DNA from: a virus
Strand: one strand, 5' to 3'
DNA length: 15,705 nt
Virus record (IMG/VR): IMGVR_UViG_3300045988_120407
Location: 1-15,705 of that record
Below, piece by piece: positions 486-15,705 of this stretch. The notes below the pieces were generated by a model. That model was not told where the DNA came from. It made no database searches and saw only the letters and a list, made by a program, of their open reading frames with translations. The translations under genes and the position numbers were made by a program. Positions within the stretch are counted from its first letter, which is position 1; every line of letters starts with the position of its first letter.

Positions 486-710
486 ATGAAGAAATATAGC
501 AAGCAAGATATTAAGAACCATATCGCCAATACGTTTGGTTTTGCTATTAATAAAATTGTTCTTCTTGAGTGGGGAACTGATCCTATCGAAGATTGCATGT
601 TTCGTGTCTGTGATATTGTTTACCAAGCCAACTATGACAACTTACATATTTATTGTTATATTGATAAATATAGTTATATTGATTATGAGGAGGTATTATG
701 TGCCCAATAG
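486..710 (+). CDS. Small early protein of unknown function (74 aa); first 9 codons lie inside the ITR
   Basis: ORF track. An SD-like 'aaggggc' sits 8 nt upstream. It is the first gene downstream of the ITR promoter. I recognise no domain. Confidence 0.55.
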   Translation: MKKYSKQDIKNHIANTFGFAINKIVLLEWGTDPIEDCMFRVCDIVYQANYDNLHIYCYIDKYSYIDYEEVLCAQ

Positions 711-2656: not shown

Positions 2657-4363
2657 ATGGACTATGCAGAGTATGCAGCCGATTTTGAAACCAACACAAC
2701 AGAAGAGGGAGTGGCAAAAAATCCTGTTTGGGCGTGGGGCGTGTGCCTGGTCGGTAATAATGACACTTTTACTTATGGTCTATCAATCGAAAGTTTTATG
2801 GACACGATCTTAAATTTTAATAATGCTAGGATTTGGTTTCATAATTTGGCGTTCGATGGAAAATTTATAATTGATTATCTGTTAAGACACGATTTTAAAC
2901 ACGTTGAACAGATAAACGACAATATGCAACTAAGCACGCTTATCGATGATATGGGACGGTTCTATTCAATAAAGTTTCGCGCTATGGATAAAGAAATAGT
3001 GTTCGCTGATAGTCTTAAAAAAGTAACTATGAGTTTGGCCGATGCCGCCAACACCTACCATCTCGAAATGACCAAAGGCGAAATAGATTACAGCATCTAT
3101 AGGCCATCTGGTCATGAGTTGACCGCGCAAGAATTGGACTATTTACGGCGTGATGTTTGCATATTGGCGCAAGTGCTAGAGCAACGTTTAAAAATGGGAA
3201 CGAAGCTCACAACGTCGGCGGATTGTTTAGCAGTTTATAAGGATTTAATCGATAGTAAGAAGTTTAATAAACTTTTTCCAATGTTGCCAAAAAGAGCCGA
3301 TCACGACATAAGAAAATCGTATAAGGGCGGTTACGTATACGTTAACCCAATTCACCAAAACAAGACTTACCGTAAAGATGGTGTTTCGTTGGATGTTAAT
3401 AGTATGTATCCCTATCAAATGCGTTATAAATCTTATCCGTACGGTTTGCCTGAATTTGTCATGAACGAAAAAGAATTAGACGGCCTTTATGTCGCCTGTA
3501 TAGAATATACAGCCAAGTTAAAGCCACGGTGTTTGCCCTGTATACAGATTAAAGACAATTCGAAATTCAATCCTAGGGAGTATCAGCGCAATATTACGGA
3601 GCCTTTGATAGGCTGGTTCACAAGTGTGGATATAGAACTTATGCGGGATATGTATGACTTGGATATAATCGACTTTTTAGGGGCTTATAAGTTTAATAGC
3701 CAATACGGGTTATTTGACGATTATATAGATATTAACAATTACAATAAGACGCACGCGACTAATCCAGGTGAACGTTTTCAGGCGAAATTATGCAATAATT
3801 CGCTTTATGGAAAGTTCGGGCAAAAGATACAGGGAAGCAAGAAAATACCCGTTTTACAAGATGATACGGTTCATTATAAGCTGGTAGACGGTGACGATCG
3901 AGACCCTGTTTATATCCCTATTGCATCGTTTGTTACCGCTTATGCGCGAGACTATCTCATTAGAACGGCGGTAAAGTTTGGTGATAATTATATCTATAGC
4001 GATACCGATAGTATCAAGGCGTTTGGCGGTGTCCCCGAGTGGCTAGAAACCGACCCTAAAAAATTAGGTTATTTCGATTGCGAATACCGATTTAAGAAAT
4101 GCCGTTTTATCAGACCGAAAACCTACGCCGTGCAACTTGATAATGGTGAATACTCATATACTTGTGCAGGTATGCCACAAGGGCTAAAAGATGTAATGAG
4201 TTTTGATGATTTCAAGATAGGTTTTACCAATGACCCTAAACTAATTAAAGATATGAATAGGTTCAATAACAAATACTTATCAAAAGACTGTTATAAATTG
4301 GTGCCTAAGTTGGTAAAAGGCGGCGTTATACTTGAAGAAAGGCCATTTACTATAAGGGGGTAA
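2657..4363 (+). CDS. Protein-primed family B DNA polymerase (phi29 gp2-like), 568 aa
   Basis: Exo I 'DFETNT', Exo II 'HNLAFDGKFIIDYLL' and Exo III 'YLRRDVCILAQVL' are present. So are motif A 'LDVNSMYPYQM', motif B 'KLCNNSLYGKFGQ', motif C 'YSDTDSIKA' and KxY 'RPKTYAVQ'. All closely match the phi29 polymerase motifs. Confidence 0.95.
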   Translation: MDYAEYAADFETNTTEEGVAKNPVWAWGVCLVGNNDTFTYGLSIESFMDTILNFNNARIWFHNLAFDGKFIIDYLLRHDFKHVEQINDNMQLSTLIDDMGRFYSIKFRAMDKEIVFADSLKKVTMSLADAANTYHLEMTKGEIDYSIYRPSGHELTAQELDYLRRDVCILAQVLEQRLKMGTKLTTSADCLAVYKDLIDSKKFNKLFPMLPKRADHDIRKSYKGGYVYVNPIHQNKTYRKDGVSLDVNSMYPYQMRYKSYPYGLPEFVMNEKELDGLYVACIEYTAKLKPRCLPCIQIKDNSKFNPREYQRNITEPLIGWFTSVDIELMRDMYDLDIIDFLGAYKFNSQYGLFDDYIDINNYNKTHATNPGERFQAKLCNNSLYGKFGQKIQGSKKIPVLQDDTVHYKLVDGDDRDPVYIPIASFVTAYARDYLIRTAVKFGDNYIYSDTDSIKAFGGVPEWLETDPKKLGYFDCEYRFKKCRFIRPKTYAVQLDNGEYSYTCAGMPQGLKDVMSFDDFKIGFTNDPKLIKDMNRFNNKYLSKDCYKLVPKLVKGGVILEERPFTIRG

Positions 4364-4366
4364 TAT

Positions 4367-4726
4367 ATGCAAGTTGAATTATATGCGGCCTTAGTTGTGA
4401 TGCTTTTTATAATTCTTGATTTTGTTTCGGGGATTATTAAAGCAGCAATTAAAAGCGAGTTATCAAGTACCAAGATGCGAGAAGGGCTTATGCACAAGTT
4501 GAGTTTCATTCTTGCGCTTTTGCTTGGTTGGCTGTGTGAATGGTCAATGCCTATTTTGGGCTTGCCTGATGTTTTCGGGGCGGTATATATGGGTGTGGCT
4601 GTTTATATTTCGTGCACCGAAATAGTAAGCATTTTGGAAAATTTAGGCGAGATAAATCCTGAATTAAAAACAAGTAAATTTTTGTCACTTTTTGGCGAAA
4701 ATACTACCGATAATAAGGAGGGCTAA
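4367..4726 (+). CDS. Holin (phage_holin_4_1 / TIGR01593-like), 119 aa, predicted TM helices
   Basis: RBS AAGGGGGG. It has hydrophobic segments and the family signature 'ILDFVSGIIKAAIKSELSSTKMREGLMHKL'. It sits directly upstream of the endolysin. Confidence 0.8.
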   Translation: MQVELYAALVVMLFIILDFVSGIIKAAIKSELSSTKMREGLMHKLSFILALLLGWLCEWSMPILGLPDVFGAVYMGVAVYISCTEIVSILENLGEINPELKTSKFLSLFGENTTDNKEG

Positions 4727-4727
4727 A

Positions 4728-5528
4728 ATGAGTGTAAATATTATTGAAACTAATCTTTCTTTTAAGGCGATGACTAATCGTTCACGCACTACACGAATCA
4801 TCTTGCACCATGCAGCCGCAATCGAATGCAGTGCTGAAGATATTCACTCTTGGCACTTGGCCAAAGGTTGGGCGGGCGCGGGCTATCATTTCCTCGTGCG
4901 TAAGGACGGAAAAATTTACCGCTTGCGACCAGAAAACAAAGTAGGAGCTCATGCGTCGGGTTCTAATTCCGATTCATTAGGTGTATGCTTTGAGGGCGAT
5001 TTTATGACGGAAACCATGGGCGAGACACAACGCAAGACGGGCTCTGAATTGGTTTCTTACCTAAAATCTAAGTACGGAATTTCTAAAGTTCAGAGGCATA
5101 AGGATGTTTGTGCTACAGACTGCCCAGGCGTTAATTTTCCATTTAACGAAATTGCAAATACAGGGTCTAGCACCTCCGCAACAACTTCTAACGGCGGCGA
5201 TGTTGCTGTTGATGGTTGGATTGGTGTAAACACTAATAAAAAAGCACAGCGTTATTTCGGAACTCCTGTAGACGGTGTTATGTCAAACCAAGACCCTAGC
5301 CTCAAACGCTATTTTCCGCGCATTGATTCACGAGCTATTAATTATAATGGCGGCAACGGCTCTAATCTCGTAGCAGCGATACAACGATTATTAGGTGTAA
5401 AAGATGACGGCTTTATGGGACCAGAAACTATTAAAGCGATGCAACGTTTTCTCGGGGTTGCGCAAGATGGTATTCTTGGTTATGACACCGCTAGCGCATG
5501 GCAGCGCTGGTTAAACGCGCATTGCTAA
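4728..5528 (+). CDS. Endolysin: N-acetylmuramoyl-L-alanine amidase (Amidase_2/PGRP) with C-terminal PG_binding_1 repeats, 266 aa
   Basis: AGGAGG lies 7 nt upstream of the ATG at 4728. The track ORF start at 4692 overlaps the holin and lacks an RBS. Zn-ligand context 'ILHHAA...HKDVCATDCPG' is present. C-terminal repeats fit 'QRxLGV..DGxxGxxTxxAxQRFLGV'. Confidence 0.85.
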   Translation: MSVNIIETNLSFKAMTNRSRTTRIILHHAAAIECSAEDIHSWHLAKGWAGAGYHFLVRKDGKIYRLRPENKVGAHASGSNSDSLGVCFEGDFMTETMGETQRKTGSELVSYLKSKYGISKVQRHKDVCATDCPGVNFPFNEIANTGSSTSATTSNGGDVAVDGWIGVNTNKKAQRYFGTPVDGVMSNQDPSLKRYFPRIDSRAINYNGGNGSNLVAAIQRLLGVKDDGFMGPETIKAMQRFLGVAQDGILGYDTASAWQRWLNAHC

Positions 5529-5531
5529 CTA

Positions 5532-5560
5532 TTGAACGAAGGATGATTTTAAAGTAAGAT
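5532..5560 (+). promoter_or_regulatory. Putative sigma-A promoter TTGAAC-17-TAAGAT directly after endolysin stop
   Basis: The -35 ttgaac (5532..5537), a 17-bp spacer and the -10 taagat (5555..5560) are read from the sequence. This would initiate at ~5567. Confidence 0.4.
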
Positions 5561-5566
5561 TATCTA

Positions 5567-5738
5567 TACAGATAGTGCCGCCGTTTATAAGTAGTATGTA
5601 AAGTATCACCATAAGACAAAGCCTTGCGGCTATTGGTGATATAGTCCCTTGTCCCTGGCTCGACACTTTCTCGGTACGGTCTATCTGTAAAGATACGGGC
5701 TATTGGTGTATAATTATCACTGATAGCCCTTTTATTTT
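5567..5738 (+). ncRNA. Candidate ~170-nt structured small RNA / structured leader (pRNA-sized) ending in an intrinsic terminator
   Basis: A non-coding gap of ~225 bp. A long-range stem pairs 5560..5574 'tatctatacagatag' with 5682..5696 'ctatctgtaaagata' (14/15). An internal hairpin pairs 'tatcacca' with 'tggtgata'. A 12-bp direct repeat 'ggctattggtg' occurs twice (5628, 5699). A terminator hairpin closes it. Confidence 0.25.
5697..5738 (+). terminator. Rho-independent terminator (stem gggctattggtg / cactgatagccc, loop ~8 nt, then TTTTATTTT)
   Basis: A 7-bp perfect stem is extended by 5 more pairs with 2 G·U wobbles, then a 9-nt T-rich tract. The scaffold gene RBS and GTG follow immediately, so late transcription must read through or start upstream. 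Confidence 0.7.
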
Positions 5739-5752
5739 AGGAGGTAAAACAG

Positions 5753-6046
5753 GTGGATATTTTCGAACTATTGGCGGGTATCACTGATGAAATTGAAGAT
5801 TATCCCGCGTATTTATCCAATATTAATGATGCTTTTACGTCATATAACGACGGCCAGGTAGCATTAATCGAACAGCGCAATCAAGAGATTGAAGAGCTGC
5901 GCCGCGAAAACACTGATTTAAAAGCCAAGAATTATGAACTAATCATGGCGGAGACTGGTAATTCTGAAGATGAGGATGAGCCAGACGAAGCCGAAGAACT
6001 AACTATTGAAGATAAAGTTAAAGAAAACCTAATGAAGGAGGATTAA
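5753..6046 (+). CDS. Head scaffolding protein (phi29 gp7-like), 97 aa, GTG start
   Basis: RBS AGGAGG then GTG. It is a small, highly acidic, coiled-coil protein directly upstream of the major capsid gene. Its C-terminal 'ELTIEDKVKE' resembles the gp7 end 'ETITIEDLEAK'. Confidence 0.75.
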   Translation: MDIFELLAGITDEIEDYPAYLSNINDAFTSYNDGQVALIEQRNQEIEELRRENTDLKAKNYELIMAETGNSEDEDEPDEAEELTIEDKVKENLMKED

Positions 6047-7435
6047 ATGCCAGCAACCCTAACACTAAGTAACGCCGAAGTGCTTAACATGGTTCGAAGT
6101 GAAGCATCGGCGAGTTATCAGGAACGAATCCCCGCAGCAACGCGCGGCAATATCGCGAAAATTTTTGAAACGTTGGACGCGTATAGTCCAATTATGAATG
6201 AGTTCAATGATTTGTTGGTAAATCGTATTGGCTTAACGGTTTTTCAGACTAACTCATTCCGTAATTCACTCGCGCCATTGAAGCGTGGAGAGCAGCAATT
6301 CGGCGGAATGGTGCAGGAAATTCAGGGCGGGCTTATTTCTGCGGAGCGTTATGACCCTAATAACACTAATCCATTTGGAGCACCAAAGCCTGATATTGAA
6401 GTAAATTACTACAGCATGAACCGCCAGGATGTTTACCCTATGCGCTACAATCGCGACCAGTTGCGGCAAGCATTTGTTAATGATGGCGGCTTATCGGGTA
6501 TGATTAATGACATTTTGGCAATACCGTTAAAGTCCGATCAATGGGATGAATACTTGATTATGCGTAATCTCGTAAAGGGCGCGCATGATGCTTGGACAAT
6601 GCCAACTGTTAAAGTACCTGATATTGCAACTGCTAGCGACAAAGAAGCAGCAGGAAAAGAAATTGCAGTAGCAATGCGTGAGCATTACTTAATGATGCGC
6701 GACTTCATTAAGACACAGTACAATCCAAAGCATATGCCCGTATCTAGTGACGAGCTGGTAGTTTTGGGGACACCTGCATTTTTTGCATACTTTGATGTTG
6801 AAGTTTTGGCGGCGGCCTTCCATATGGATAAAGCAAACTTTATTGCTGAGAGAACCATTGTAGTTGATGACTTTGACATTGCAGGAGCACAAGCGGTGCT
6901 CATTGATGCGAGCGCCTATGTTTGCGCTGATAACCTTGTGGCAAATGACACTATTTATAATCCGCGTACCCGCGATTGGATTAGTTACTTGCATCACTGG
7001 GGTACTTACGCGCTGTCTGATATGCGTAATATGCTTTTGTTCTCTTCTACGGAAGAGGATAATTTAGGAAGTGTTACCGCTAAGACCGTGACTAGTGTAA
7101 GTCTTGCATTGACTAATACGGTAGCCGATAATGCTGTACTTGAACCAGGAGCCGAAATCGAACTTACTCCGAAAGTAACCTACAGTGATACCTCAACCGA
7201 CGAAGCGGTATTTTACTTGATTACTGATCTAAGCGCTACCGCTCCGACCGATACCAGTGCACCCGCGCCTAACGTTATCAGCCCTGATACAGGCACGTAT
7301 GTAGACGATCAAAACGTGTTACATGTTTCACGCAATAGCACGTATGAAACTCTTAACATTACGGCTTATGCAGCAGCTAATAATACTAAGCTTGCAAACC
7401 TTGAACTTAACAAGGTAGGCTATTCAGCGGGTTAA
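6047..7435 (+). CDS. Major capsid protein (phi29 gp8-like) with C-terminal Ig-like (BIG2-type) domain, 462 aa
   Basis: RBS AAGGAGG. 'FNDLLVNRIGLTVFQTNSFRNSLAPLKRG' matches gp8 '[29 protein letters not shown]'. 'NPRTRDW' matches 'NPRGLYW'. The C-terminal segment VTSVSLALTNTVADNAV...LTPKVTYSD is Ig-like. Confidence 0.9.
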   Translation: MPATLTLSNAEVLNMVRSEASASYQERIPAATRGNIAKIFETLDAYSPIMNEFNDLLVNRIGLTVFQTNSFRNSLAPLKRGEQQFGGMVQEIQGGLISAERYDPNNTNPFGAPKPDIEVNYYSMNRQDVYPMRYNRDQLRQAFVNDGGLSGMINDILAIPLKSDQWDEYLIMRNLVKGAHDAWTMPTVKVPDIATASDKEAAGKEIAVAMREHYLMMRDFIKTQYNPKHMPVSSDELVVLGTPAFFAYFDVEVLAAAFHMDKANFIAERTIVVDDFDIAGAQAVLIDASAYVCADNLVANDTIYNPRTRDWISYLHHWGTYALSDMRNMLLFSSTEEDNLGSVTAKTVTSVSLALTNTVADNAVLEPGAEIELTPKVTYSDTSTDEAVFYLITDLSATAPTDTSAPAPNVISPDTGTYVDDQNVLHVSRNSTYETLNITAYAAANNTKLANLELNKVGYSAG

Positions 7436-7451: not shown

Positions 7452-9518
7452 ATGAAAACTTCTTTTACTCCCTCCTCATGGCCTGCACAATCCCGTGTCA
7501 CACTTTGCCGTGTGACATGGGATTCTTCATATAAAGACGTGGTTTCTTTTGCAGACCGTGAAACGAGGGATAACTATTTCACATCATTAACTAGTGATTC
7601 ATTAACACTTGGAAATTATTCATACTTAAAACCGAATGAGCCTATTAATTTAGGGCTACCGTATAGCGCGGCTTATACATATAACTATTGTGTAGTAGAA
7701 AACCCAGAGCAACCCGTACCTGGAGAACTTACACCGCCTAAGCTGTATTACTTTATAACGTCTGTTGCTATGGTTAACCCGTCTACTACGGCTATCACGT
7801 TACAATTAGATGTGTTTCAAACGTATCTTTTCAACTTCCGTATTAGCCAAGCGTTTGTAGTGCGAGGGCACGCCGCTATTCAAGCAAGTTGTAATGTAGC
7901 TAATAACAATGCACCTTATACATGGCGGCGGTATTGCTCGGTACCAGAATCATTGGATATTGGCAACGAATACAACATATCAGATGTGCAAGTTCTTAAT
8001 TTATCCGTGAACCGTTCGGAAGGGTCGGAGGACTTAAACGGCCTCTCATTGATTGTCCAATCAACGGGCGACCTTGCGGCAGATTGGGGCACCATTACTA
8101 ATCCTTCTTTTAGAACGTCAGATGGACAGTTTACCGATGGTATTATTTCCTCGTGCAACGTGTATGAACTAAGACCAGACGATTACAAGATATTGTGCGA
8201 ACGGTTGCGCGAGGCTCCATGGGTAGCTCGTACTATTTTATCGGTTACGCTCTTTCCTAAAGCGTTTCTAACCGATGGCCCAGACGTGCAATTAAACGGG
8301 GTAAATGCTCGATTTTTAGGCACAACACCCGATGAAGGTGAGTTTTGGACTGATAGACAATCGCTTGCTAACCGTTTAGGACAATCCATAAGCTACCGTT
8401 ATAGAAACTTAAAAAAGTTGTTATGCTACCCGTATTCGGTAATTGAACTAACCAACTTCACGGGAAGCCCTTTATTGTTAAAGCCAGAACTAACTAACGA
8501 AAACGCGCTAGCCTTGCGACAGGTGGCATGCGCAGCCCCTCCTTATATGCGTCTTGCTTTCTATGTGCCGTATTATGGTAGTGACGTGGGCGTAAACGGT
8601 AGCTTGCCAAATGACGAAGATTATTATTATTTTGTTCTCGATGATAGCGAACCAAGGCGAGAGGGCACCTATCGACCAGAAAACTATATAGACAATGCGC
8701 TATGGTTTAACAACTTGCCGACGTTTAGCATCGTTAACGATAATTACATACTTTATCAGGCTACAACAGTTAACACGCGTAACTGGCAATATAGCGGCGC
8801 GGGTTGGGCGCTTAATAAGTCAAACGCCCAAACACAGTTGACCTATAGCCAGGCTCAACAACAGTTGGGTAATAATCAAGCCAATATGGATGTTCAGAAC
8901 GCAAGCCGAATAGCTAACGCAGCACTGGGAACCGTGGGCAATCTCACGGGAGGCAATGTTGGCGGCGCGGTTATGGGATTAGTCGGCGCGGGTGTTGATT
9001 ATTGGGCAGCGAATGAACAGTTCAATAATAACCAAGCCCTACAATCAGGCTTCGCGACACAAAACGCCGATCTTGCGCAGTGGGCAGCACAAGGAGACTA
9101 CCAGAATACAATTGCGGGAATTAACGCAACCGTGCAAGACATGGCACTATCACAGCCAAGCGTTATCGGGCAGCAAGGCGGTGACGGTTTTAATCTGTGT
9201 AACGGTATTTTTGAAATTGCTATTCGTTTCAAGAATATCAATAGCAACATGCAGCATGTAGTTGGCGAGTACTTCCTTAGATACGGCTACGCGATTCATG
9301 AGTTTATGGCACTCCCTGAAAATCTAAACTGTATGGAAAACTTCACCTATTGGCAATGTAAAGAGGTATACCTTAATTGCTCGCGTGCAGACGAGGGCGC
9401 AAAAGAAACGATACGTGGTATCTTTGAAAAGGGCGTTACGGTGTGGAGAGATGCCACGAAAATTGGTAATATAGATATTGCAGACAATGAACCATTAGGG
9501 GGTGTGTTATATGACTAA
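7452..9518 (+). CDS. Tail knob / distal tube protein (phi29 gp9-like), 688 aa
   Basis: RBS AAGGGGGAG. 'ITLQLDVFQTYLF' matches gp9 'FEIDVLQTWMF'. A Gly/Ala-rich hydrophobic segment 'AALGTVGNLTGGNVGGAVMGLVGAGV' is consistent with the gp9 membrane-active loop. Confidence 0.8.
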   Translation: MKTSFTPSSWPAQSRVTLCRVTWDSSYKDVVSFADRETRDNYFTSLTSDSLTLGNYSYLKPNEPINLGLPYSAAYTYNYCVVENPEQPVPGELTPPKLYYFITSVAMVNPSTTAITLQLDVFQTYLFNFRISQAFVVRGHAAIQASCNVANNNAPYTWRRYCSVPESLDIGNEYNISDVQVLNLSVNRSEGSEDLNGLSLIVQSTGDLAADWGTITNPSFRTSDGQFTDGIISSCNVYELRPDDYKILCERLREAPWVARTILSVTLFPKAFLTDGPDVQLNGVNARFLGTTPDEGEFWTDRQSLANRLGQSISYRYRNLKKLLCYPYSVIELTNFTGSPLLLKPELTNENALALRQVACAAPPYMRLAFYVPYYGSDVGVNGSLPNDEDYYYFVLDDSEPRREGTYRPENYIDNALWFNNLPTFSIVNDNYILYQATTVNTRNWQYSGAGWALNKSNAQTQLTYSQAQQQLGNNQANMDVQNASRIANAALGTVGNLTGGNVGGAVMGLVGAGVDYWAANEQFNNNQALQSGFATQNADLAQWAAQGDYQNTIAGINATVQDMALSQPSVIGQQGGDGFNLCNGIFEIAIRFKNINSNMQHVVGEYFLRYGYAIHEFMALPENLNCMENFTYWQCKEVYLNCSRADEGAKETIRGIFEKGVTVWRDATKIGNIDIADNEPLGGVLYD

Positions 9519-10509
9519 AAAACTCAAACCGGGAGAATATCCGATAGACTACCCTATTGCGTTATCCGATATGGCAATAGGCCGCAATTGGATACGAGAG
9601 AAGTACTCTAATAAATATGAGTATTACGACAATCAAGCCTTCATGTTCTGGGAAGATTATTTGGCGAATATCGCCCTAGCTGCTTTTAAATGGGAAAACC
9701 TACCAGCAGGGATTGACCCACGCGCGTTAGAGTTTATCTTTCTTAATTGGGGCATGGGCGGTCTGTTTCAGGAAAGCGGGGGCTTTCTGTTTGCACAGTG
9801 CACGCCTGTAGATACCTATAACCTTTACTACAATCCTAACGAAGTAACTTTAGTTAGTCCCGTTGGGCGTACCTGGATTAGGCACAATCAGCCGTGGGGA
9901 ATCGCGGGAGAGGGTGAAGAAATAACCTATCGCCCCCGCGATTGTGTAGTTGGTTTCGACAATATGAGACGTACCCCCCTCAACTCACATATTAAATACT
10001 TTGCGCGCCGTTTGGCAACGTATGACTCTATAGCCGATCTCAACACAGGAGCCCAACGCACGCCCTATATAATCCGAACAAGCGAACAGGCGTTAAAGTC
10101 AAACCAAGAGTTGTATTCAAAGCTTGAGCGCAATGACCAGGTTTTATATTTGAACGATGCAGCAGGAACAGGCACCCCCGAAGTTATGCAAACACAAGCG
10201 CCCTATATTGCAGAGGATATTTTCAATAACCAGAAGAAAATTCTTGATCTTGCTATGACTATTTTCGGTGCTGATAACTCAAACACTGAAAAGCGCGAGA
10301 GGGTGCAAACAAAAGAAGCAATGAGCAATAACGAGCAAATTATGCTTTTGCGCCGTTCTCGTTTGATGTGTCGCGAACGTTTTTGCGAAGAAGTTAATCG
10401 TACGTTTGAGTTGGAAAAACCAATTAGCGTTTCATGGGCGGTTCCACATATGGCGGAGCCAGACGATGCACGTTACCCGACCCTAACAGGAAACGAAGGG
10501 TGGATATAA
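9511..10509 (+). CDS. Portal / head-tail connector (phi29 gp10 upper collar-like), ~333 aa
   Basis: 'FKWENLPAGIDPRALEFIF' matches gp10 'FEWENLPPTINPSFLEKSI'. AGGGGGTG is spaced correctly for the ATG at 9511; the track's GTG at 9502 is less likely. The start overlaps the tail knob stop by 8 nt. Confidence 0.85.
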   Translation: MTKKLKPGEYPIDYPIALSDMAIGRNWIREKYSNKYEYYDNQAFMFWEDYLANIALAAFKWENLPAGIDPRALEFIFLNWGMGGLFQESGGFLFAQCTPVDTYNLYYNPNEVTLVSPVGRTWIRHNQPWGIAGEGEEITYRPRDCVVGFDNMRRTPLNSHIKYFARRLATYDSIADLNTGAQRTPYIIRTSEQALKSNQELYSKLERNDQVLYLNDAAGTGTPEVMQTQAPYIAEDIFNNQKKILDLAMTIFGADNSNTEKRERVQTKEAMSNNEQIMLLRRSRLMCRERFCEEVNRTFELEKPISVSWAVPHMAEPDDARYPTLTGNEGWI

Positions 10510-13807: not shown

Positions 13808-14863
13808 ATGGCTAAGTATTGGAACATAAACAAGGCACTTTCGTACAATGCGAACATTGTAATGGTAGCAGGTGCGCGTTCTATTGGTAAAACGTACACC
13901 ACATTGAAGCATTGCGTTAAACGCTTTATTAAACACGGTGAAGAATGTGTATATATCCGCCGTTATGAGCCAGAACTAAGGGCGGTTAAAAAGTATATAT
14001 TTTCAGACGTGGCAACCGATAAAGAGTTTAAGGACTACGTTTTTAGGCTGGTAGGCTCTGAATACCAGATAGCCAAGCGACCAAAAGACAAAGAGAAGCC
14101 CGAATGGCGAACATTCTGTTATCTCTTAATTGCGTCACGTTATCAGGATTATAAGGGTGTCCCGTTTCCTAAAGTCAAATATATCGTTTGGGACGAGTAC
14201 TTGAGAGAAAATAACCGCCCGCCCGGCTATTTAGTTGATGAGGTAGGGGCTATACTATCATTGCTTATTACGATCTCACGTAAAAAGCGCGATGTAACAT
14301 TTTTCTTGCTTACAAACTCATGCAATATAGTAAACCCGTTATTCAGATTTTTACATATCAGCAACGAGCCTAAAAAGGGATATACTCAATACAAATTGGG
14401 CACCACTAAGGATGGTAGTGATATTGTCTTATTGATGGACTATGTAGCTCCCGAGAGTTTTAAAGATGAATCGTTAAATACTATTGGCGGTGCCATTGCT
14501 GATGGTACTAAGTACGGCGATTATATCACGGGTAACAAGTTTACTAATGCCACGGATAAGTTCATAGCTAAAAAGCCCTCGACGGCTAAATATAGATATG
14601 GTTTTAAGTTTAACGACTATGTATTCGCGTGCTGGTATGATGCTAGTAGTTTTATTTATTTTATTAACGATAAAGTGCCAGCCGATAAACAAGTTATTGC
14701 ACTAACCATTGATGATTACGATTTGAACATGATAGCGGTTGAAAACTCCCGTGAGTTTATACGTACCTTGAAAAGATTATACTTAAACGGGGTTGTAAGG
14801 TTTGAAAGCCCTGTTTTGAGGGAAAACTATTTTAAGATGTGTAAGTTATTGAACTTGAGATAA
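13808..14863 (+). CDS. DNA packaging ATPase (phi29 gp16-like), 351 aa
   Basis: N-terminal 'NINKALSYNANIVMVAGARSIGKTYT' matches gp16 'NPQKMLSYDRILNFVIGARGIGKSYA' (Walker A). Walker B is 'KYIVWDEY'. Confidence 0.9.
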   Translation: MAKYWNINKALSYNANIVMVAGARSIGKTYTTLKHCVKRFIKHGEECVYIRRYEPELRAVKKYIFSDVATDKEFKDYVFRLVGSEYQIAKRPKDKEKPEWRTFCYLLIASRYQDYKGVPFPKVKYIVWDEYLRENNRPPGYLVDEVGAILSLLITISRKKRDVTFFLLTNSCNIVNPLFRFLHISNEPKKGYTQYKLGTTKDGSDIVLLMDYVAPESFKDESLNTIGGAIADGTKYGDYITGNKFTNATDKFIAKKPSTAKYRYGFKFNDYVFACWYDASSFIYFINDKVPADKQVIALTIDDYDLNMIAVENSREFIRTLKRLYLNGVVRFESPVLRENYFKMCKLLNLR

Positions 14864-14864
14864 A

Positions 14865-14900
14865 GAAAGCGCCCTATTCGGCGCTTTCTGTTTCTTCTGT
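14865..14900. terminator. Bidirectional intrinsic terminator (gaaagcgcc-ctattc-ggcgctttc then T-rich tract)
   Basis: A perfect 9-bp palindromic stem with a 6-nt loop is followed by tgtttcttctgtttcc on + and tttatctc on -. It sits between the convergent ATPase gene and the leftward small ORFs. Confidence 0.7.
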
Positions 14901-15061: not shown

Positions 15062-15220
15062 CTAATCTTCCTCTACTAATTCGTATTCTCCATCATTGTT
15101 TACAACCTCATAATAGTGCTCGGGACTGTCAACATAATTCTCGAAAATAACAACTGCATTATAATCTGTACCGTAACGATTCATTTTATATAGAATATCT
15201 TGCTTGCTATATTTCTTCAT
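15062..15220 (-). CDS. Small acidic protein (52 aa), first gene of right-end leftward operon; N-terminal 9 aa encoded by the ITR; not in ORF track
   Basis: Hand translation gives MKKYSKQDILYKMNRYGTDYNAVVIFENYVDSPEHYYEVVNNDGEYELVEED*. It has the same ITR-borne RBS and start as the left gene at 486. It diverges after codon 9, where the ITR ends. Confidence 0.55.
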   Translation of the reverse strand: MKKYSKQDILYKMNRYGTDYNAVVIFENYVDSPEHYYEVVNNDGEYELVEED

Positions 15221-15705
15221 CTTTTGCCCCTTTCCCTTTTCGGTAGTTTCATTATATACGATATTGGCTATAATTAATAGGGCTAATTTTATTACTTGTT
15301 TTTATGGGGGTATTTTTGTTATGAATAATTGGAAGGTATGGGCTTTATTTGTTTTGTGTTGTGTTTGTTGGTGCGTGGTTGCGTGGTATGTGTTTTGGTG
15401 TGGTGGTTTTGGTTGTGGCTAGATCAGGCTGTTAGTTTGTTGGTGGTTTTGGCTGTGGTGGTTCGTGATTGGTTTTGGTGGTGGTGGTTCGTGGTTGGTT
15501 TTGGTGGTTTGTTTTGGGCTTGGTGGTTCGTGGTTGATTTTGGTGGTGGTTTTGGTGGTTGATTTTGGTGTGGTGGTTTTGGTGGTTGATTTGTTGATCG
15601 AATTGTGGTAGTATTATTTGTGTAAGGAAAGAAGGGCTAGAAAATGATGGTTAGGTTTTGGTGGTGGTTTTGGTGGTAGTATTATTTGTGTAAGGAAAGA
15701 AGGGC
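15194..15705. repeat. Right inverted terminal repeat (~512 bp)
   Basis: Reverse complement of 1..512. Confidence 0.9.
15245..15290 (-). promoter_or_regulatory. Mirror copy of ITR promoter driving leftward right-end operon
   Basis: By ITR symmetry with 420..465. The -10 TATAAT on the minus strand is at ~15251..15256. Confidence 0.35.

Follow-up and report, generated by a model that had tools for sequence, protein, structure and literature searches.

No RNA other than the packaging RNA (pRNA) of phage phi29 and its kin is known to be indispensable to a viral DNA-packaging motor. In phi29 the gp10 connector is its docking partner, the gp16 ATPase binds its A helix, its CE and D loops pair between molecules, and its three-way junction (3WJ) and kissing loops have made it a workhorse of RNA nanotechnology. 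Rfam holds a single pRNA family, built on phi29 and related Bacillus phages. This family, RF00044 ('Phage_pRNA': phi29, PZA, M2/Nf, B103, SF5 and GA-1), was our comparison set; its consensus runs from the A helix over 1 nt to a C helix of 9 bp with a bulge, a 9-nt CE loop, the E hairpin, the returning strand C', UUU, a D hairpin with the loop UGGUU, and A'. A 2024 review describes pRNA as restricted, so far as is currently known, to phi29 and its Bacillus relatives (PMC11476376). We analysed a stretch of viral DNA of 15,705 bases (IMG/VR record IMGVR_UViG_3300045988_120407; the whole stretch is called the window) in which a 224-nt gap, at 5529-5752, separates an endolysin gene from a scaffold gene. 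A preliminary description, made from the letters alone, had seen in this gap either a relocated or analogous pRNA or, as second choice, a terminator/antiterminator leader of the late genes. All coordinates are window positions, and the RNA element is on the + strand, unless stated otherwise.

From the sequence comparisons reported below, the gap appears to be the gene for a pRNA of a previously undescribed, highly divergent family, carried by uncultured phi29-like phages, a reading to which we assign a probability of about 0.72. That a conserved structured RNA gene lies in the gap is practically certain, and a role of this RNA in packaging is likely. The first choice of the preliminary description is thus the one favoured, on the strength of the complementarity between the CE and D loops and of a helix order that is that of phi29. 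In all the features that sequence can reveal, the window RNA looks like a pRNA; it departs from the known family in the match to the RF00044 model and in genomic location, and for these two reasons it is not placed in RF00044.

Fold of the RNA in the window and its close relatives

Folding of the whole gap on the + strand gave -66.2 kcal/mol and z = -3.6. The nested hairpins announced in the preliminary description are real, both in folding and in RNAalifold; run on the close set (18 sequences), the latter returned a 3WJ and a terminator. These two parts fold separately in the minimum free energy (MFE) folds as well as in the consensus folds. The enclosing 15-bp stem (5560-5574/5682-5696) survived in part: 13 of its 15 positions are complementary and its inner part is conserved, but the outer five pairs are not conserved and lie upstream of the likely transcript start. 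What is conserved is 5568-5575/5681-5688, extended inward by 5577-5583/5672-5680. The 3WJ domain so delimited (domain I) is 121 nt long, from 5568 to 5688.

As drawn from RNAalifold and pair counts, the 5' strand of the A helix (5568-5583) consists of ACAGAUAG, a bulged U at 5576, GCCG and CCG, and its 3' strand (5665-5688) of ACUU (5665-5668), CGG (5672-5674), CGGU (5677-5680) and CUAUCUGU (5681-5688). The ACUU pairs with AAGU at 5589-5592, the 5' strand of the inner A helix (A2). The C helix is formed by GUAUCACCA (5603-5611) and UGGUGAUAU (5634-5642); between its strands are the CE internal loop UAAGACAA (5612-5619) and the E hairpin AGCC-UUGC-GGCU (5620-5631). The D hairpin, AGUC-CCUUGUCCCU-GGCU, occupies 5643-5660.

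Within the close clade, 98.2% of the cells of the alignment are standard pairs, versus 29-41% when the partners are slid, and the covariation score was above that of 500 out of 500 shuffles. All C-helix cells are paired (100%) and three of the pairs show compensatory double changes, as when GUAUCACCA/UGGUGAUAU becomes GUAUUGCCA/UGGCAAUAC. In A2 a compensatory U-A to A-U change is found in 6 of the 18 sequences, and the A-helix pair 15:117 is G-C, G-U or A-U depending on the relative. Several invariant or frequent G-U pairs (12:120, 40:81, 46:75 and 84:97) would become A-C mismatches on the other strand; the RNA is therefore read from the + strand and a minus-strand reading is rejected. A 45-aa open reading frame (ORF) on the minus strand, 5529-5666, was also considered and was ruled out by 1-nt indels among relatives and by these G-U pairs; the indels exclude a conserved ORF in the gap.

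One detail of the A helix deserves mention. At 5573-5579/5678-5683, UAG, a bulged U and GCC pair with GGU-CUA, with an invariant G-U pair, and the same arrangement is found in lineages L020 and L052; this detail recalls the A-helix bulges on which the function of the phi29 pRNA depends. Another common motif, GAAGUC...GACUUC with a GU bulge, is present in the A helices of L025 and L046.

Conservation of the layout in distant lineages

Conservation in related phages, on which the preliminary description had made its proposal depend, is extensive. The element is present in 17 IMG/VR contigs, 80-90% identical, the capsid proteins of which are 92-95% identical, and in these 17 close relatives the 224-nt gap is kept at the same site. 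Capsid homologues from 73% down to 41% identity led to 12 further contigs, all 12 with a gap of 180-230 nt directly before the scaffold gene. A profile scan of IMG/VR added more gaps, for a total of about 17 lineages whose primary sequences cannot be aligned with one another; about 16 of them lie beyond the window clade, with capsid identity down to 37%. The layout of the gap does not depend on the gene upstream, which may code for an amidase, a GH25 lysozyme or a lysin of the ELLD/NlpC type, or may be a minus-strand ORF.

In the distant lineages the order of elements is a long bulged A helix, usually NAG-UA, C, CE, the E hairpin, C', the D hairpin, and UU(N) which pairs with NAG. The C helix is drawn in every curated lineage, with 7-10 bp and often one irregularity (in L077 it is doubtful, and 5 nt stand between C' and D). 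The CE internal loop is 5'-sided and measures 5-10 nt, typically 7; the E hairpin has 3-5 bp and a loop of 4-6 nt, usually a tetraloop; the D hairpin, which follows C' after 0-2 nt, has 3-5 bp and a loop of 6-15 nt. The linker from A to C is 2 nt long, and the core from C to D spans 55-60 nt in 17 out of 17 lineages. Unconstrained MFE folds give the 3WJ in most lineages.

A covariance model of the core, R2, was built from ten lineages. Across 466 kb it matched 37 loci, every one of them at the syntenic site. In the R2 alignment across clades, 89.8% of the cells are paired, versus 32-50% when slid. Double changes occupy 109 cells, where shuffles gave 37.7 ± 4.9, and co-variation is seen in 11 of the 13 pairs. 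The E hairpin is 99% paired across clades, with 3 of its 4 pairs co-varying, and the inner pairs of the C helix co-vary across the clades that R2 aligns. R2 found no match in IMG/VR clades that are still further away, their capsid proteins being at most 39% identical (L076, L078-L107). A covariance model made from the 18 close sequences, R1, reached only L020, L022 and L045 and mis-aligned their A helices. MAFFT set the C-helix registers of different clades out of phase, which is why column counts across clades are limited to 13 pairs and why the loop test described below was done sequence by sequence. Two pattern descriptors were discarded: the first, automatic one mis-assigned L020, L021, L023 and L027, and a stricter one gave background matches in coding regions, its match in L097 being rejected as lying inside the scaffold ORF.

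Some variations around this layout were observed. In most lineages NAG-UA stands directly 5' of the C helix (L023, 2051-2056, and L025, 2033-2038, in their own coordinates), and the UU(N) after D pairs with NAG. The window and L020 clades have instead an insertion of about 10 nt (GUAUGUAAA-like, possibly a local duplication), which makes for a looser junction; the AAGUA motif occurs twice in the window, at 5589-5594 and 5601-5605. In the close relative L004 the element is partially duplicated in tandem (5241-5379 and 5417-5727 of that contig): the second copy is complete, and the partial one begins with the 3' end of the endolysin gene, includes the promoter and stops within the E hairpin, after ~95 nt of RNA. 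The lysis module beside the RNA is freely swapped (L020-L027, L115-L118) between Amidase_2, GH25 with or without peptidoglycan-binding (PG-binding) domains, ELLD/RicinB and NlpC/P60, in some cases with an extra minus-strand ORF, while the RNA and the scaffold gene are constant in place.

Complementarity between the CE and D loops

A search for two mutually complementary loops had been suggested as a test for the hallmark of pRNA, and its outcome was positive: GACAA in the CE loop (5615-5619) is complementary to UUGUC in the D loop (5649-5653). Across the 17 lineages the complementarity extends over 3-6 bases per lineage, and the sequence changes while the pairing persists. The other CE/D pairs are AAGGA/UCCUU, GGCA/UGCC, UGCA/UGCA, CAGC/GCUG, GCCC/GGGC, CGCC/GGCG, AUGC/GCAU and UGCCA/UGGCA, together with weaker ones of 3 bp. 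In a first set of 14 lineages the mean Watson-Crick run was 3.79 for cognate loops versus 2.52 for non-cognate ones (permutation p ~2e-5; within-loop shuffles, 5e-5); with 17 lineages the values were 3.82 and 2.51 (permutation p ~1e-6), and runs of at least 4 bp were found in 71% of cognate versus 11% of non-cognate combinations. Three hold-out lineages, fetched afterwards, gave exactly 4 bp each (UUGC/GCAA, GCGA/UCGC and GACC/GGUC).

Because the loops were drawn by eye, the test was repeated in three ways, i.e. with the whole D hairpin, with wider limits for CE, and without the two lineages for which a register had been knowingly chosen; p ranged from 1e-4 to 1e-3. Two negative controls, in which the D loop was tested against the E loop and against the C strand, were flat, with p = 0.79 and 0.55. 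In any one clade the complementary bases do not change and the flanking loop bases vary, as seen in the D loops GAGGCUGG, CAAGCUGG, CACUGCUGG and CAGGCUGG. By analogy with phi29, the CE/D pairing is presumably intermolecular.

Promoter, terminator and ends of the predicted transcript

The gap had been described as long, about 225 bp: it measures 224 nt, from the endolysin stop codon (5526-5528) to the GTG of the scaffold gene (5753). It is the only long non-coding gap if internal gaps are considered; the 485-nt termini, inside the 512-bp inverted terminal repeats (ITRs), are non-coding too. The sigma-A promoter reported there can be read from the sequence, with TTGAAC at 5532-5537, a 17-nt spacer and TAAGAT at 5555-5560. 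In close relatives the -35 hexamer is TTGAAC or TTGAAT, always 17 nt before the -10, and the -10 hexamer is TAAAAT, TACTAT or TAGTAT in relatives. A generic promoter scan did not call the gap promoter; it missed it because it demands a T at position 6 of TATAAT-type matches and 9 matches out of 12. In 11 close relatives the -35 TTGAAC lies within the last endolysin codons; in the window and 5 relatives an insertion of ~21 nt has shifted the stop codon, and TTGAAC/TTGAAT is again exactly 17 nt from the -10. As the relatives with and without the insertion agree, the geometry of the promoter (17-nt spacer, 7 nt to the first paired base) has been kept in two contexts. A -10-like box, often of the extended TGn type, is found 7-10 nt before the A helix in most other lineages, L022, L046 and L065 being ambiguous. 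From promoter geometry only, the transcript is predicted to start at ~5567-5568.

The strong intrinsic terminator, placed by the preliminary description ~170 nt from the start, was found at 5697-5738; it has a stem of 12 pairs, one of them compensatory (5697-5708/5718-5729), and a U-run, UUUUAUUUU, at 5730-5738, and would be the counterpart of 'domain II' of pRNA. The predicted transcript would thus run from ~5567/8 to ~5736-5738, roughly 170 nt. The ribosome-binding site (RBS) of the scaffold gene, GGAGG at 5740-5744, does abut the terminator, the U-run ending at 5738, and there is no space for another promoter. A comparable hairpin precedes the scaffold RBS in every lineage, and a U-run follows it in most; L052, L065 and L066 have a weak one or none.

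Alternative explanations and points of doubt

These last features bear directly on the explanation that survives best beside a pRNA, unlikely as we hold it to be: a cis-acting 5' leader of the late operon, in which a 3WJ with an intramolecular CE-D contact would bind a protein or a ligand and set the read-through past the terminator. In the window the U-run (5730-5738) leads straight into the scaffold RBS and leaves no space for another promoter, and the terminator abuts this RBS in all lineages; the late genes must therefore be transcribed through the terminator, and the genes downstream are all on the same strand. The CE/D complementarity would also suit a pseudoknot within one molecule. Moreover, the window clade has a direct repeat that joins the C/E arm to the 5' arm of the terminator. 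This repeat, initially given as 12 bp, is real (it occurred in 0 of 200 shuffles) and is 11 nt long (GGCTATTGGTG, at 5628-5638 and 5698-5708). However, it is confined to the window clade and is not maintained when the C helix mutates, without co-variation, since the second copy is not kept identical when the first one changes; we rejected it as an antiterminator for being clade-specific and not maintained. Outside the window clade there was no significant match between domain I and terminator (two were marginal, p = 0.03 and 0.06, among 28 tests), and no significant complementarity or repeat between them was found in 13 of 14 lineages. Thus, of the leader proposed as second choice in the preliminary description, the terminator directly before the scaffold RBS stands, but a conserved alternative pairing was not found, and domain I and the terminator fold independently.

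Searches of Rfam at gathering and permissive thresholds gave chance-level matches only, and neither the element nor its surroundings matched a family of riboswitches or leaders. The purine-type riboswitch resembles the window RNA in being a 3WJ closed by a terminal helix, with complementary loops, in a 5' leader before a terminator. In the window RNA, however, one of the two elements is an internal loop located 7-10 bp from the junction and the other arm has only 3-5 bp; no expression-platform switch is conserved, no Rfam riboswitch matches, and the junction core of the new RNAs is, unlike that of a riboswitch, not conserved in sequence apart from AGUA and UU. Under a leader, the exact helix order and sizes of pRNA beside the genes of the two protein partners of pRNA would be a coincidence.

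Less probable still is a stable trans-acting small RNA unrelated to packaging, be it an mRNA regulator, a defence or nuclease decoy, or a protein scaffold. An independent promoter-terminator unit with a conserved structure and no detectable sequence homology to pRNA would suit it; however, no conserved single-stranded seed is evident, the lineage-constrained loop bases complement each other and not a common target, and neither the strict synteny with the scaffold and capsid genes nor the pRNA-like architecture would be explained. Finally, it is very improbable that there is no dedicated RNA and that the gap is an early or lysis terminator plus a late promoter, with structure reflecting sequence relatedness: promoter and terminator are there and the single-sequence z-scores are modest, but the order is wrong for 'terminator then late promoter', as the promoter lies upstream of the terminator, and the helices kept by double substitutions across unalignable lineages, the constant 55-60-nt core and the loop complementarity above permutations stand against it, so that the covariation data already contradict this explanation.

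Several observations weigh against a pRNA. The covariance search with the Rfam pRNA model, listed in the preliminary description among the checks, gave no match of RF00044 in the window (gathering threshold 100 bits, E <= 10), and none in 13 relatives at E <= 1. As the same model does find the phi29 pRNA (145.4 bits in the positive control), homology to known pRNA is not demonstrable and the likeness is architectural. The gene site also differs: in the window it is mid-genome, on the strand of the late genes, between lysis and scaffold genes; phi29 has its pRNA gene at the left end, where it occupies 201-318 of the minus strand, under the early promoter A1 and opposite to the late genes. The cultured or deposited phages Eggerthella LE1-1, Microbacterium PineapplePizza, OP549880, Cp-1, Av-1 and phi29 have neither the element at the syntenic site nor a match to R2. 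The z-scores of single-sequence folds across lineages are modest (-2.9 to +1.2). Loop boundaries in the distant lineages were curated by eye, and L026, the L066 clade, L077 and L118 rest on manual drawing, their R2 scores being at noise level. The CE/D pairing is down to 3 bp (GAC/GUC) in 5 of the 18 close relatives, and contiguous Watson-Crick pairing is 3 bp or less in 5 of the 17 curated lineages; the complementarity could equally be an intramolecular tertiary contact. The N-terminus of the connector, considered as a possible hint of RNA binding, gave no consistent picture: it is basic in the window (MTKKLKP), L020 and L027, and not so in L024 and L026.

Since no antiterminator is conserved, we regard the RNA as a pRNA in the first place, which by chance or by relocation is also the terminated leader of the late operon; a dual role is possible.

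Proposed mechanism and implications

A pRNA at this locus might work as follows. A sigma-70-type promoter would start the RNA at ~5567-5568 and the terminator would end it at ~5736-5738, giving ~170 nt, as judged from signals conserved in relatives. The first ~120 nt fold, as the covariation shows, into the 3WJ made of the bulged A helix, the C-CE-E arm and the short D hairpin. Bases of the CE loop would then pair with D-loop bases of a neighbouring molecule; here the complementarity and its co-variation are seen in the sequences and the neighbour is taken from phi29. Several copies would close a ring on the connector of the empty prohead, and their A helices, projecting outward, would dock the gp16-type ATPase for translocation of the terminal-protein-capped genome. 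As the terminator abuts the scaffold RBS and leaves no space for a second promoter, read-through from this one probably supplies the late operon too, which would make the pRNA the terminated leader of the morphogenesis genes. We offer tentatively, as possible rather than probable, a broader proposal: that the RNA ring is ancestral and widespread in phi29-type motors and that here, with the pRNA as terminated 5' leader of the morphogenesis operon, one promoter and a leaky terminator would set the ratio of pRNA to structural mRNA, the RNA being both a motor part and an operon gate.

RNA-dependent DNA packaging is probably not confined to Bacillus phages. If the pRNA reading is true, there would be a second family, unalignable in sequence and identical in layout, and the RNA-dependent motor would be much more widespread. 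Independent data would become available on which features of pRNA are essential (helix order, junction, loop pairing, A-helix bulges), and RNA engineering would gain ~17 natural orthogonal kissing-loop pairs and new 3WJ cores. The old question of pRNA as a relic or as a late invention would become testable. The late-operon leader position suggests in addition a coupling of pRNA supply to capsid production, which phi29 does not use.

Genome context

The window is the complete linear genome of a small phi29-like podovirus. It begins and ends with perfect ITRs of 512 bp (1-512 and 15194-15705). The genes from SSB to the ATPase are all on the + strand. Upstream of the gap are encoded an SSB, the protein-primed family-B DNA polymerase (PolB, 2657-4363; PHROG phrog_1907, 5e-131), a holin and an amidase endolysin (4367-5528, stop codon at 5526-5528). 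Directly after the gap come a scaffold-like protein of 97 aa, an acidic coiled-coil (5753-6046, GTG start at 5753), which is not part of the RNA, and the phi29-type major capsid protein (MCP, 6047-7435). The gp10-type connector is at 9511-10509 (Pfam Phage_connector, E = 4e-41; PHROG upper collar connector) and the gp16-type encapsidation ATPase at 13808-14863 (Pfam Podovirus_Gp16, E = 4.4e-45; PHROG terminase). Further late genes code for a tail protein, the lower collar and tail lysin proteins.

A DNA search of the phage collection, with the whole window (megablast) or with the element (blastn), gave no match, and the nearest capsid proteins from cultured phages are at most 36% identical to the window MCP. 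No tRNA or tmRNA gene was found in the window. Strong AGGAGG RBSs, extended -10 boxes and Gram-positive-type lysins suggest a gut Firmicute as host. P0026, a capsid protein of the window clade, is labelled 'uncultured Prevotella sp.' in nr; as promoter, RBS and lysin types point to a Gram-positive host, the label is probably a binning artefact.

The ITRs contain, at ~30-340, degenerate C/A-rich tandem units (ACCACCAAAACC and similar; GC skew -0.84), and, for the outermost gene of each end, its promoter, its RBS and 9 initial codons (MKKYSKQDI); these genes, at 486-710 (+ strand) and 15062-15220 (minus strand), start inside the ITRs. The terminal 33 nt, GCCCTTCTTTCCTTACACAAATAATACTACCAC (1-33), are repeated directly 68 nt inward (69-101), with the mirror image at the right end; this could relate to protein-primed initiation or be an assembly artefact. 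A strong terminator hairpin, AGAAAGCGCC...GGCGCTTTCT (14864-14889), stands right after the ATPase gene, between convergent genes. Another hairpin, G+C-rich (CCCCTC...GGGGAGGGG, 1750-1768), lies in the 83-nt gap between the SSB gene and a 284-aa ORF; this ORF (1798-2652) has no family match and occupies the expected place of the terminal protein.

Comparison with known systems

Outside Bacillus, a pRNA has been predicted in the phi29-like Actinomyces phage Av-1 (misc_RNA 'packaging RNA', 16295-16402 of NC_009643), a record which shows that its authors sought a pRNA in such phages. The Av-1 feature, located at the right end of the genome, shares its sequence with ORFs of the minus strand; shuffled sequences fold as well as it does (z = +0.5), R2 does not match it, and the record carries no comparative support. 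Elsewhere in Av-1 (L114), the gap before ORF8 and the capsid gene (4470-4615 of that genome) contains a promoter, annotated as such, and a structured region; a very strong terminator then adjoins an AGGAGG RBS (z = -3.6), an arrangement parallel to that of the window gap. Streptococcus phage Cp-1 (L113) has the same one-strand layout and a 222-nt gap (4654-4876 of its genome) directly before the scaffold gene, but in the order terminator, then promoters PL1/PL2, which is the reverse of the window. The Cp-1 leader folds without the C-CE-E plus D layout and is not matched by R2; a further gap of 244 nt, from scaffold to capsid gene (5166-5410), likewise gave no R2 match.

Compared with phi29, the differences are in the details of the junction and of the hairpins. 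The A-C linker has 2 nt (UA) in the window and 1 nt in phi29, and the C-D linker 0 nt and UUU, respectively; the D stem of the new RNAs has 3-5 bp versus 6, with a loop of 6-15 nt versus 5, and their E loop is usually a tetraloop, unlike that of phi29. In the genome, the terminator abuts the first late gene in the window, unlike in phi29, and the ITRs measure 512 bp versus 6 bp. The genome type, with its gp10 connector, gp16 ATPase and protein-primed replication, is common to both. So is the size of the RNA: phi29-type pRNA has a domain I of ~117-120 nt and a dispensable 3' domain, for ~174 nt in all, and the window RNA a domain of 121 nt within a predicted ~170 nt. Both have their own promoter and terminator, a long bulged A helix formed from the two ends, and a CE/D complementarity of a few bases that varies between phages. 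Both follow the same helix order, A, C, CE (on the 5' side), E, C', D, A', in the same proportions, so that the CE and D loops of the window RNA correspond to the 'right-hand' and 'left-hand' loops of the phi29 pRNA.

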